The notes below the pieces were generated by a model. That model worked only from the letters and a program-made list of their open reading frames with translations, ran no database searches and was not told the origin of the DNA. From Candidatus Kaiserbacteria bacterium (GTDB taxonomy: Bacteria > Patescibacteriota > Minisyncoccia > Phycocordibacterales > Phycocordibacteraceae), in contig CAWEXP010000010.1 of assembly GCA_963813065.1 (NCBI GenBank), forward strand, positions 7,276 to 71,275: DNA of 64,000 bases, given 5' to 3'. A program made the position numbers and the translations under genes. Within the stretch, counting starts at the first letter, position 1. Each line of letters starts with the position of its first letter. Below, one piece after another: positions 13,083 to 16,000 of the stretch.

Positions 13083-16000
13083 ATGCCAGACGTCGAGAAA
13101 TCGGAGGTCGCAAAGAAAGAGGAGGAAACCCTCGCTTTCTGGGAGCGTGAGCACATTTTCGAGAAGTCACTCGCTCAGCCAGCACCGAAGGGAGATTTTG
13201 TTTTCTATGATGGCCCGCCCTTTGCTACTGGTCTTCCACACTACGGCCATATCGTGGCGAGTGTAATCAAGGACGCCATTCCACGTTACAAGACGATGCA
13301 GGGGTATCGTGTGCCGCGCCGGTGGGGCTGGGACACGCACGGTCTCCCAATTGAAAATGTGGTCGAAAAGGAGCTTGGCTTCACACACAAGAAGGACATC
13401 AAGCAGTATGGTGTCGAGAAGTTTAACGAGCGATGTCGCGAGCTCGTGCTCGGATATGTCGGTGAATGGAAGAAAATTATTCCGCGCATCGGGCGCTTCG
13501 TCGACATGGAGCATTCGTACACCACCATGGATGCATCCTTCATGGAGAGCGTGTGGTGGGTTTTCAAACAGATATACGACAAGGGTCTGGTGTATGAGGA
13601 CTATCGCTCGATGCATATCTGTCCGCGGTGCGAGACGACGCTCTCGCAACAGGAAGTGGCCGAGGGGTACAAAGATGTAAAAGACATTTCGGTGACGGTG
13701 AAGTTCAAGGTTACGAACCCCGAGAAGCTCGGCCTCTCGGGCGACGTGTACCTTCTCGCATGGACGACCACACCGTGGACACTGCCGGGCAATGTTGCTC
13801 TCGCCGTTGGCAAGGAAACACCAATCGCGCCGTTTGTGTATGTGGCATGGAAAGAAAATAATGAAACAGTCATTACATCGGCGGCTTATTATGCGAAGTT
13901 GAAAGGCGCAGCGATGACTCCTGGATCAGTTTTGTTTGGGCCGCAAGACCTCATTGGCCTCGAATACGAACCACCATTCGACTACTACAAAAAAGATGCG
14001 AATTTGAAGAACAGAGAGAACGGTTGGAAAGTGTATGCCGCAGATTTCGTCACGACCGACACGGGCACCGGCATTGTGCATATCGCACCCGCCTTTGGTG
14101 AAGACGATATGGTGCTCGGCAAAGAGAAGAATCTGCCTTTCGTACAGCATGTCGCCTACGATGGCACGATGCGACCGGAGGTGACTGACTTCGCTGGTCA
14201 GCCCGTGAAGCCACGCTCGGACGATGACAAAGTGCGCCTCGGTACTGACATTGCAGTGATCAAATATCTGCAGGAGCACGGAACCTTCTTCTCGAAAGAG
14301 AATATTGTGCACAGCTATCCGCACTGTTGGCGTTGCGACACACCGCTTTTGAATTATGCGACGACCTCATGGTTTGTAGAAGTAACAGCGCTCAAGAACG
14401 AACTTATTGAACATGCGAAAAAAATTAACTGGACGCCCGCGCATGTTAAGGACGGACGCTTCGGCAAGTGGCTTGAAGGTGCGCGCGATTGGTCCATCTC
14501 GCGCCAACGCTTCTGGGCGAGTGTCATTCCACTCTGGAAGGATGCGGCGGGGGGGATTACTGCCATTGGGTCGGTCGAAGAATTAAAAAAGCACACCAAG
14601 AAGTCGGGCAATACGTATTTCGTGATGCGGCACGGCGAGGCCGAGCACAATGTCGCAGACATTTTGAACGGGGAAGATCGCGGCCGTTATCCACTCACTG
14701 CCGAGGGCCGTGCGCAGGCAATCGCGGCGGCGAACGTTCTCGCGGGCGAGCGGGTCGGTGCCATATATGCCTCGCCATTTCTTCGTGCGCAGGAAACCGC
14801 GAAAATAATCGCACAGAAGCTGGGTATCCCCGAGACCGCCATCATCACCGACGACCGATTGCGTGAACTCGGCTTCGGCACGCTCGAGGGCACGAGCTAT
14901 AAAAAGTTTCTCGCGTATCGCGATACGCATCCGATCGGCTTCGACGAGCCGGTCGCTCTCGGCGGCGAGAGTTACCAGCATGCGAAGAATCGTTTCGCGG
15001 AGTTTCTCTACGAGCTTGAACGCTCTGTCTCGCATAAAACGATCTTGGTTATCACGCACGGCATCGGTGTCGAGACGTTCGAGGCGGTCGTCCGCGGGGC
15101 AGGGAAGGAGGAGTCGAAGAAATTACTCGGCCCTTTGCACGCGCACCGCGGCGAATTGCGGAAATTTGATTTTGTCCCACTCCCACACAATGCTAATTAC
15201 GAGCTCGATTTGCACTTGCCGTATATCGATAATGTGCAACTGGTGAACGAGACAGGGGAGCCGCTCATCCGCGTTCCCGACGTGCTCGACACATGGTTTG
15301 ACTCCGGTTCAATGCCCTACGCGCAGGCGCACTATCCGTTTGAACATAAGGATGATTTCGAAAAGACATTCCCGGCACAATTTATCGCCGAGGGTATCGA
15401 TCAGACGCGCGCATGGTTCTACTATCTCCATGTTCTTTCGAGTGCAGCCCTTGATACAAACGCGTTCGAGAATGTCATTGTCAATGGCACCGTGCTCGCA
15501 GAAGACGGTAAGAAGATGTCGAAGAAACTCCAGAATTATCCGGATCCGATGCTACTCGTTGATACGTATGGTGCCGATGCGATGCGTTTCTATCTGCTCG
15601 CATCGCCGGTGGTCGAGGCCGAGAATCTTGCCTTCACCGAGGGCGGTGTTGATGAGGTCGCTAAGAAAAATATCGGGCGCCTGACCAATACGCTCTCATT
15701 TTATGCACTGTTTGCAGATGGCACGCCGGCTTCGCCCACTAGTACTGACCTTCTTGACCGATGGATTTTCACGCGCCTCAAGGAGCTGGTGCAGGAGGCG
15801 ACCGCAGGGTATGAGCGTTATGAACTAGACCGTGCGGTGCGGCCAGTGGCGCTGTTCGTTGACGATCTTTCTGCGTGGTACGTACGCCGTTCGCGGGACC
15901 GTTTCAAAGAAGAAGGGGGAGGGAAGACGGCTGCGCTTGCGACATTACGGTACGTACTGAAAGAGTTTTCGAAAGTGATCGCACCCAGTATGCCCTTTAT

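Follow-up and report, generated by a model that had tools for sequence, protein, structure and literature searches.

Few enzymes are as conserved as the aminoacyl-tRNA synthetases, and the domains known to have been added to them, such as the CP1 editing domain and the eukaryotic GST, WHEP, and EMAPII domains, are editing, RNA-binding, or protein-interaction modules. Extra catalytic domains are rare in bacterial synthetases and, where understood, usually point to new biology, for example editing, signaling, or resistance. A precedent for an isoleucyl-tRNA synthetase (IleRS) with an extra catalytic domain is provided by the NCBIfam model NF040702 (ileS_w_GNAT, [quoted passage not shown]); to our knowledge, no phosphomonoesterase domain is known inside a synthetase. 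Here, we describe the ileS gene in a 64,000-nucleotide stretch of contig CAWEXP010000010.1 from Candidatus Kaiserbacteria bacterium (the window), which encodes an IleRS with a complete histidine phosphatase domain inserted into its CP3 domain. Like the synthetases with GST, WHEP, EMAPII, or CP1 add-ons, this protein has a core to which a further folded domain has been added where the structure tolerates it; here, that domain is a phosphatase. Full-text literature searches returned no paper on an aminoacyl-tRNA synthetase containing a histidine phosphatase or on an unusual IleRS architecture in Patescibacteria, in agreement with the first-pass annotation of this DNA, which had called the architecture nonstandard. 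IleRSs bearing the module are already present in public databases under generic names, and the architecture is undescribed in the literature searched; it would probably surprise a specialist.

The gene and its parts are located in the window as follows:
13083..16496, + strand: ileS, type-2 isoleucyl-tRNA synthetase with an inserted domain, 1137 amino acids (open reading frame [ORF] and TIGR00392 score).
13083..14603, + strand: N-terminal IleRS body, comprising the first half of the Rossmann domain, the CP core, the CP1 editing domain, CP2, and the first half of CP3 (tRNA-synt_1 at amino acids 16 to 508; alignment end at 1ILE residue 481 and 6LDK residue 498).
14604..15185, + strand: branch-1 histidine phosphatase module, amino acids 508 to 701, about 195 amino acids (Pfam, AlphaFold2 [AF2], Foldseek, and junction conservation).
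15186..16496, + strand: C-terminal IleRS body, comprising the second half of CP3, the second half of the Rossmann domain with WFDSGS and KMSKK, the anticodon-binding domain, and DUF5915 (Pfam; alignment restart at 1ILE residue 488).

The ileS gene lies inside a plus-strand ORF (positions 12987 to 16496) with no frame disruption. The ATG at 13083 is the likely start codon, yielding a protein of 1137 amino acids, and an independent protein from a Logan assembly (P0051) starts at the same methionine (MPDVEKSEV). The window protein passes the TIGR00392 ileS equivalog model (840.5 bits, cutoff 621.4). Pfam tRNA-synt_1 matches it in two stretches (E value, 8.3e-132), the first covering amino acids 16 to 508, with the phosphatase family His_Phos_1 lying between them; Anticodon_1 follows at amino acids 892 to 1038 and the C-terminal domain DUF5915 at amino acids 1047 to 1115. 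The IleRS landmarks HYGH (amino acid 53), WSISRQRFW (470), DVLDTWFDSGS (733), and KMSKK (811) are all found, and the editing-domain motifs WTTTPWTLP and GTGIVHIAPAFG are readable in the translation. The best solved relatives are 8C8U (E value, 3.7e-209) and 1ILE (3e-204), and the Staphylococcus aureus type-1 enzyme 1FFY is a weaker match (4.8e-87). With its closest relatives of the IleRS2/Thermus thermophilus type and its DUF5915 domain, the window protein thus classifies as a type-2 (eukaryote-like) IleRS. It shares domain order, HIGH and KMSKS motifs, editing domain, and DUF5915 with Priestia megaterium IleRS2 (8C8U) and T. thermophilus IleRS (1ILE), and it aligns with both over the full length except for the insert. 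Two special IleRS types were considered and rejected: the mupirocin resistance enzymes MupA and MupB (685 and 633 bits, NCBIfam exception cutoff 1900) and ileS_w_GNAT (319 bits, cutoff 1999), with no Pfam match to a GNAT domain in the protein. Unlike the proteins described by NF040702, the window IleRS is without a GNAT domain, and its accessory enzyme is a phosphatase.

The insert was delimited by comparison with these structures. Residue-level alignments stop at window amino acids 506 to 507 and restart at amino acids 702 to 708, and the gap falls between residues 481 and 488 of 1ILE, 478 and 480 of 8C8U, and 498 and 505 of the Candida enzyme 6LDK. CP3 has been assigned to residues 473 to 534 of Candida IleRS (PMC7191050) and to residues 459 to 526 of yeast IleRS (PMC7955072), which places the loop in the middle of CP3; in T. 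thermophilus IleRS, CP3 bears a zinc-binding motif (PMC7191050). In these alignments, the module of about 195 amino acids stands in place of a loop of 1 to 6 residues at the tip of CP3 (residues 482 to 487 in 1ILE, a single residue in 8C8U), and the loop had rightly been noted before as short in other IleRSs. The span of 14590 to 15130 originally given for the inserted domain locates it correctly and ends about 55 nucleotides (nt) short of the C-terminal junction at 15185.

Pfam His_Phos_1 (PF00300) matches amino acids 513 to 665 with an E value of 6.7e-31 (107.9 bits, cutoff 21.7), which bears out the first-pass annotation of a complete in-frame histidine phosphatase domain within a 1137-amino-acid IleRS. 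Careful alignment also bore out the presence of the catalytic RHG motif and second histidine and added the other residues of the set. The corresponding codons are listed here with their conservation in 80 related loci (see below):
14628..14636, + strand: R516-H517-G518 (RHG motif; H517 is the predicted phospho-acceptor), R in 80/80, H in 80/80, G in 78/80.
14784..14786, + strand: R568 (predicted second phosphate-binding Arg), 80/80.
14865..14867, + strand: E595 (predicted general acid, RLRE motif), Glu in 79/80, Asp in 1/80.
15057..15059, + strand: H659 (second catalytic His, THG motif), 80/80.

Structure prediction, which had been proposed as a check on whether the insert is an independent domain, gave a clear answer. 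AF2 folded the module alone with a mean predicted local distance difference test (pLDDT) score of 93.9 and a predicted template modeling (pTM) score of 0.91, and in the full-length model the module is the best-predicted part (pLDDT, 90 to 97). The best Foldseek match is PhoE from Geobacillus stearothermophilus (1H2E; E value, 7e-14; template modeling [TM] score, 0.76), which is also the best solved relative by sequence (E value, 5e-12). Other top matches are a riboflavin pathway histidine phosphatase (9MMH), the phosphoserine phosphatase PspA, and glucosyl-3-phosphoglycerate phosphatase (GpgP); TM scores to PhoE, PspA, GpgP, and CobC, which have the alpha/beta phosphoglycerate mutase-like fold, range from 0.71 to 0.78. 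As judged from the predicted model, the nearest solved structures are all small-molecule branch-1 phosphatases and not mutases. The module shares the fold, the size (about 195 to 210 amino acids), and the RHG/Arg/Glu/His set with PhoE (YhfR), PspA, CobC, and GpgP; unlike PhoE-type phosphatases, to which it is 22 to 28% identical, it sits in an IleRS loop with conserved junction motifs and is not a free protein. Identity as a dPGM was rejected (NF038349, 88.7 versus 225 bits; TIGR01258, 22.8 versus 81.7 bits; GpmB, 53.7 versus 261 bits), as was identity as CobC, SixA, or PspA (TIGR03162, 77.8 versus 162.9 bits; SixA, 43 versus 74.5 bits; PspA, 50.5 versus 350 bits). The earlier term "PGAM-like" therefore appears right for the fold only. 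Profile, motif, and predicted fold together confirm the insert as a complete domain of the branch-1 histidine phosphatase superfamily.

We consider it likely that this one polypeptide is bifunctional, being both an IleRS and a phosphomonoesterase. The IleRS body would charge tRNA-Ile and edit as other type-2 enzymes do, as presumed from its HIGH and KMSKS motifs, CP1, and anticodon-binding domain, and the PhoE/PspA/CobC-like module would fold independently at the tip of the peripheral CP3. By the mechanism of the family, the terminal phosphoryl group of the substrate would pass to H517, giving a phosphohistidine intermediate, and then to water, with R516, R568, and H659 binding the phosphate and E595 serving as the general acid. 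From the invariant catalytic set, we infer that the module is catalytically active.

An assembly chimera or sequencing artifact at the junctions was considered as an alternative. The window does contain probable single-base insertion errors, at 29068, 29516, and 30700, in comparison with an independent assembly. The ileS ORF, however, is uninterrupted; P0051, which comes from the Logan assembly of a public run, is identical to the window IleRS over about amino acids 1 to 1004 and thus covers both junctions, which are the same; and 79 of the 80 loci from related genomes, along with 33 loci from metagenomes, show the identical architecture. The independent assembly answers the worry about misassembly that had been raised with the first description of the insert, and we regard an artifact as scarcely conceivable.

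The distribution of the insert was determined by an insert-profile scan of one genome per GTDB species, in which at least 224 species representatives encode it; 80 loci from the 224 genomes were retrieved and aligned. These loci are 41 to 57% identical, almost all are labeled Patescibacteria, Parcubacteria, or Paceibacteria, and the labels of insert-bearing genomes include Kaiser-, Vogel-, and Nomurabacteria. The survey of IleRS orthologues proposed in the first-pass annotation thus found the same insertion widely, and the accompanying suggestion of a recent domain capture is rejected, the sequence comparison indicating an old insert. In 79 of the 80 loci the insert lies within one uninterrupted ORF of about 1100 to 1170 amino acids. 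Mean pairwise identity is 45% for the module versus 48 to 59% for other IleRS parts; at this divergence, the near-invariant catalytic residues point to a module under selection. Both junctions carry conserved motifs, S-G-N-x-Y(-F-MRHG) on the N-terminal side and F-x-P-L-P-H-N on the C-terminal side, with residues conserved in 76 to 80 of the 80 sequences. A HMMER search of 1.84 billion representative sequences with the module gave 17,263 matches (E values up to 0.001), and 82 of the top 150 representative clusters are IleRSs or IleRS fragments with the module. Also ranking among the closest relatives of the module are proteins of 360 to 450 amino acids with two tandem histidine phosphatase domains and no IleRS match (P0232, P0258, P0239, P0294, and about 12 others).

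Insert-less IleRSs are found just as close to the window protein. A whole-protein search returned close insert-bearing proteins of 1110 to 1200 amino acids, many of which bear the generic NCBI name "class I tRNA ligase family protein" because of the phosphatase insert, and equally close insert-less proteins of 925 to 1000 amino acids, which are named isoleucine--tRNA ligase and are mostly from Kaiserbacteria and Paceibacteria. The insert-less proteins carry CxxC...CxC cysteines on both sides of the site, as in the CP3 zinc knuckle of T. thermophilus IleRS. Unlike these proteins, the window IleRS is without CP3 zinc ligands; none of the cysteines is present in it or in its aligned insert-bearing relatives. 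Counted over a larger set, the zinc cysteines are distributed as follows:
Single module at the CP3 site (n = 149): no Cys, 126; all four Cys, 15; partial, 8.
No CP3 insert (n = 81): no Cys, 0; all four Cys, 76; partial, 5.

Seven proteins with two CP3-site modules have none of the four zinc cysteines. Judging from these alignments, the module evidently inserted at the knuckle tip, and most lineages subsequently lost the zinc ligands. The near-reciprocal pattern of zinc ligands and insert could also be read as a catalytically dead structural or RNA-binding module having replaced the knuckle, with its pocket stabilizing CP3 or gripping the tRNA backbone. Pure binding, however, would not need a nucleophile His, a general-acid Glu, and a second His that are invariant or nearly so, and the 15 proteins in which knuckle and module occur together speak against a replacement. 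We therefore consider a dead module very unlikely, and the reading as an active phosphatase within IleRS is retained.

The CP3 tip is one of four sites at which such modules occur in IleRSs. In coordinates of a 940-position IleRS profile, the sites are as follows:
Site A, profile positions 500 to 508, CP3: the window and about 70 clusters.
Site B, profile positions 547 to 562, just after WFDSGSMPYA: P0214, P0229, P0253, and P0328.
Site C, profile positions 677 to 688, start of the anticodon-binding domain: P0214, P0229, and P0268.
Site D, profile positions about 433 to 447, upstream of CP3: P0203.

Tandem doubles at site A are present in P0276, P0311, P0248, and P0262, and P0203 has four modules in one protein. 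P0214 keeps the zinc knuckle and has its modules at sites B and C; its cluster has six members, every one of 1419 amino acids, on contigs of up to 1.06 Mb. The catalytic residues (RHG, second Arg, Glu, and second His) persist in nearly all modules examined. A module resembles those at the same site of other proteins more than those at other sites of its own protein, so the multiplicity does not stem from recent internal duplication. When long multi-domain matches of the module were checked with Pfam, all eight contained a class I synthetase domain, and five of the eight also had the IleRS-type anticodon-binding domain and DUF5915. In P0309, from a JGI metagenome, the zinc knuckle is combined with a site A module and with a GNAT domain at site B (after WFESGS). 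The first synthetase stretch of this protein also contains, in frame, an IS200-like Y1 transposase domain (Pfam Y1_Tnp, amino acids 340 to 461).

Homologues of the module also exist as separate proteins beside ileS. In the window, ileS is the middle gene of a conserved block whose other members are the following:
11033..12709, + strand: argS, upstream member of the argS-ileS-recO block (Pfam Arg_tRNA_synt_N, tRNA-synt_1d, and DALR_1).
17098..17661, + strand: recO, downstream member of the block (Pfam RecO_N).

Besides the window, argS was detected in 65 of the 80 related loci and recO in 71, and the argS-ileS-recO order is also present on a noisy ENA contig. P0003 is a stand-alone homologue of 214 amino acids that is 42% identical to the window module and still carries remnants of the junction motifs (RGNTYYVLRHGEAE...LPVNGDFE). 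Only 12 nt separate its gene from an insert-less ileS downstream of it, and the gene order there is argS-PIF1-phosphatase-ileS-recO. A metagenome scan seeded by P0003 and P0196 yielded 41 loci. In 33 of them, including the three closest to P0003 (44 to 56% identity), the homologue is inside ileS at site A; in five (L105, L107, L108, L110, and L115), a stand-alone homologue lies between argS and an insert-less ileS, on the same strand and 0.8 to 2.9 kb upstream of ileS. L105 and L107 look like the same sequence, leaving four distinct arrangements. Conversely, no further copy of the module was found within 6 kb in any of the 80 insert-bearing genome loci. The fused and split states thus look complementary, a classical signature of two proteins belonging together.

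As its split forms demonstrate, the enzyme can function without being part of IleRS, and such forms can be accommodated if the module is a housekeeping metabolic phosphatase, placed on ileS for coexpression only, as gene economy in a reduced genome, and with no link to aminoacylation. That its closest relatives are metabolic phosphatases and that the host loops are peripheral and variable would suit this explanation as well. It leaves unexplained, however, why the same type of domain occurs in IleRS specifically, in four loops and in tandem, and why the stand-alone form keeps its place beside ileS, and the class I synthetase domain found in all eight long multi-domain matches, joined in five by the IleRS-type anticodon-binding and C-terminal domains, also argues against it. 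We judge it improbable and continue to favor a bifunctional enzyme whose activities would belong together. Repeated independent embedding, multiplicity, the split form beside ileS, and retention through replacements of the core (see below) suggest that the module is tied to IleRS for a reason, and we infer that selection ties it physically or stoichiometrically to the synthetase.

Comparison of related loci and proteins further indicated that ileS in these genomes is a recombination mosaic, in which the two core halves, the phosphatase module, and the C-terminal domain differ in history. Across IleRS body identities from 0.35 to 0.90, the identity of the modules stays flat, with a median of about 0.43. 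In the pair L009 and L074, the flanking genes are 78 to 96% identical and the IleRS bodies 90 to 94% identical, whereas the modules are only 43% identical, and nucleotide identity falls from 80 to 96% to 48 to 56% exactly across the module. The opposite discordance is found between P0059 and L027, in which the N terminus (100%), the module (96%), and the C-terminal domain (88%) are similar and the two core halves are only 48% and 40% identical; in P0097, the first core half is of the P0059 type (94%) and the second of the L027 type (81%). For 2536 locus pairs, the identity of each IleRS segment was compared with that of the flanking genes argS and recO by Spearman correlation:
C-terminal domain versus flanking genes: 0.77.
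Module versus flanking genes: 0.44.
First core half versus flanking genes: 0.32.
Second core half versus flanking genes: 0.12.

The window gene itself looks like such a mosaic, with a core of the insert-less zinc-knuckle type and with CP3 flanks and a module of other origin: the two halves of its core match the insert-less zinc-knuckle type (P0092) at 77% and 73% identity, but the CP3 flanks beside the module match it at only 39% and 36%. This core type was found in 5 of 75 classifiable genome loci. We attribute the discordances to recombination, in which the partner would be another strain or a second copy of ileS, and read the module as a breakpoint and sometimes an exchanged unit, with a recombination history separate from that of the IleRS core. 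Positive selection and cassette exchange are inseparable here because synonymous sites are near saturation in species-level comparisons. Fitch counts of insert gain and loss were uneven, ranging from 2 to 11 over bootstraps of neighbor-joining trees without an outgroup and with internal branches near zero, which we ascribe to the mosaic recombination.

Such variability invites the explanation that the phosphatase, together with GNAT in relatives, is an on-board conflict countermeasure that protects IleRS and diversifies in an arms race, either by reversing an inhibitory phosphorylation on the synthetase or tRNA or by destroying a phosphorylated toxin aimed at IleRS. The hypervariable cassette of L009 and L074, the flat module identity, the repeated insertion into several loops in up to four copies, and the swapping of IleRS core segments between genomes would all be in keeping with it, as would the GNAT domain in P0309 and the existence of the ileS_w_GNAT model. 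Precedents are available, too: protein and phosphohistidine phosphatases are known in the histidine phosphatase superfamily (SixA, PGAM5, and Sts-1), and HipA-family kinase toxins inactivate other aminoacyl-tRNA synthetases. On the other hand, no toxin, kinase, or inhibitor was identified in this analysis, the closest folds are all small-molecule phosphatases, and the hypervariability could stem from relaxed constraint and recombination. Histidine phosphatases, moreover, remove terminal phosphoryl groups; the diester-type phosphorus of aminoacyl-adenylate mimics is out of their reach. A countermeasure is in our view unlikely. We also give little credence to the broader proposal that IleRS in this lineage is a platform for exchangeable "defense" cassettes (1 to 4 modules in up to four loops, sometimes with GNAT) that counter attack on isoleucine charging; if it were true, the mosaic swapping of modules and core segments would be the footprint of conflict.

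With regard to the substrate of the putative bifunctional enzyme, our best guess is a phosphorylated small molecule, either a metabolite or a nucleotide, since the close structural relatives of the module are all small-molecule phosphatases; naming any specific substrate would be doubtful. The first-pass annotation had suggested Ap4A, ppGpp, or a tRNA end, and this sequence and structure analysis found no evidence favoring any of them. More interesting alternatives would be a phosphate on a protein or an RNA, or an inhibitor that is phosphorylated; they are supported mainly by the arms-race-like variability and by the co-occurrence with GNAT.

Several points weigh against the assignment of a bifunctional enzyme. 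The full-length AF2 model has a pTM of only 0.43 and pLDDT values below 50 in the catalytic core, and the orientation of the pocket toward the synthetic site, the editing site, or the tRNA is not readable from it. The module reaches no NCBIfam equivalog cutoff of a characterized phosphatase, and homology therefore does not give its substrate or specificity. Residue N523 varies (65/80), and the hypervariability of the module outside its core could mean relaxed constraint. The multiple insertion sites might just mark loops that tolerate insertions, and coexpression alone, without a mechanistic link to aminoacylation, could still account for the fusion and the split forms.

Hundreds of uncultivated species of Patescibacteria have thus maintained an apparently active phosphatase within a synthetase that is essential. 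Its retention, repeated insertion, multiplication, and exchange as a cassette argue for an unrecognized link between a phosphorylated molecule and isoleucine charging; otherwise, the architecture would at minimum represent an unusual gene organization in minimal genomes.

A second histidine phosphatase gene in the window had been described as a truncated paralogous copy of the insert:
29967..30272, + strand: truncated histidine phosphatase gene, 101 amino acids (His_Phos_1 positions 1 to 80 of 194 only; E value, 2e-21).

The truncation holds and the descent from the insert does not. Of the catalytic set, RHG, the second Arg, and the Glu are present, but the protein ends before the second His. 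The truncation is real, since two Logan assemblies contain an identical gene; a frameshift as its cause was rejected because only 34 nt separate the stop codon from the 3' end of efp on the opposite strand and because of these two other assemblies. Its 42% identity to the insert (74 amino acids; E value, 3e-15) is ordinary family-level similarity. The nearest relatives are stand-alone phosphatases of 147 to 177 amino acids, of which the two closest are also C-terminally truncated, and no IleRS is among its 21 database matches; an origin as a copy of the insert was rejected accordingly. By these comparisons, the gene is a decaying remnant of a different stand-alone subfamily and no part of the ileS feature.

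The single-base insertions mentioned above lie in the same region, where an independent short-read Logan assembly is otherwise identical to the window over 4.8 kb. The insertion at 29068 splits ssb (ORFs 28926 to 29156 and 29005 to 29382), that at 29516 hits rpsR (position mapped via the gene calls of L082), and that at 30700 splits efp (30306 to 30674 and 30691 to 30993), which is intact, with 217 amino acids, in other assemblies. All three are probably indel errors of the window assembly.

Further observations concern the neighborhood of ileS. The space between ileS and recO is occupied by a GNAT acetyltransferase gene (16537 to 17121, minus strand; Pfam E value, 7e-8) that is convergent to ileS. 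The gene attracted attention because of the GNAT domain inside IleRS in some relatives, but it was rejected as a partner of ileS: its similarity to the GNAT domain of P0309 is not specific (E value, 0.015), and it has no counterpart beside ileS in the 80 related loci. Upstream, a long ORF with a GTG start runs into argS and would add an Arg/Ser-rich N-terminal extension of about 88 amino acids (10769 to 11032), which is probably not translated; the Arg_tRNA_synt_N domain starts right after the Met at 11033. Downstream of recO, positions 17658 to 19553 encode a Ser/Thr/Ala-rich protein of 631 amino acids with a DUF11 repeat that looks like a surface protein, and contig L001 has a similar gene at the equivalent place.

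A scan of the whole window at Rfam gathering thresholds identified only rRNA and tRNA, with no RNA element upstream of ileS. One weak tRNA-like Rfam match (55708 to 55784) was not called by ARAGORN. The 5S rRNA (55568 to 55681) is located about 1.5 kb downstream of the 23S rRNA, whose match (50173 to 54081) spans 3909 nt for a model of 2925 positions and thus contains about 1 kb of insertions or introns.

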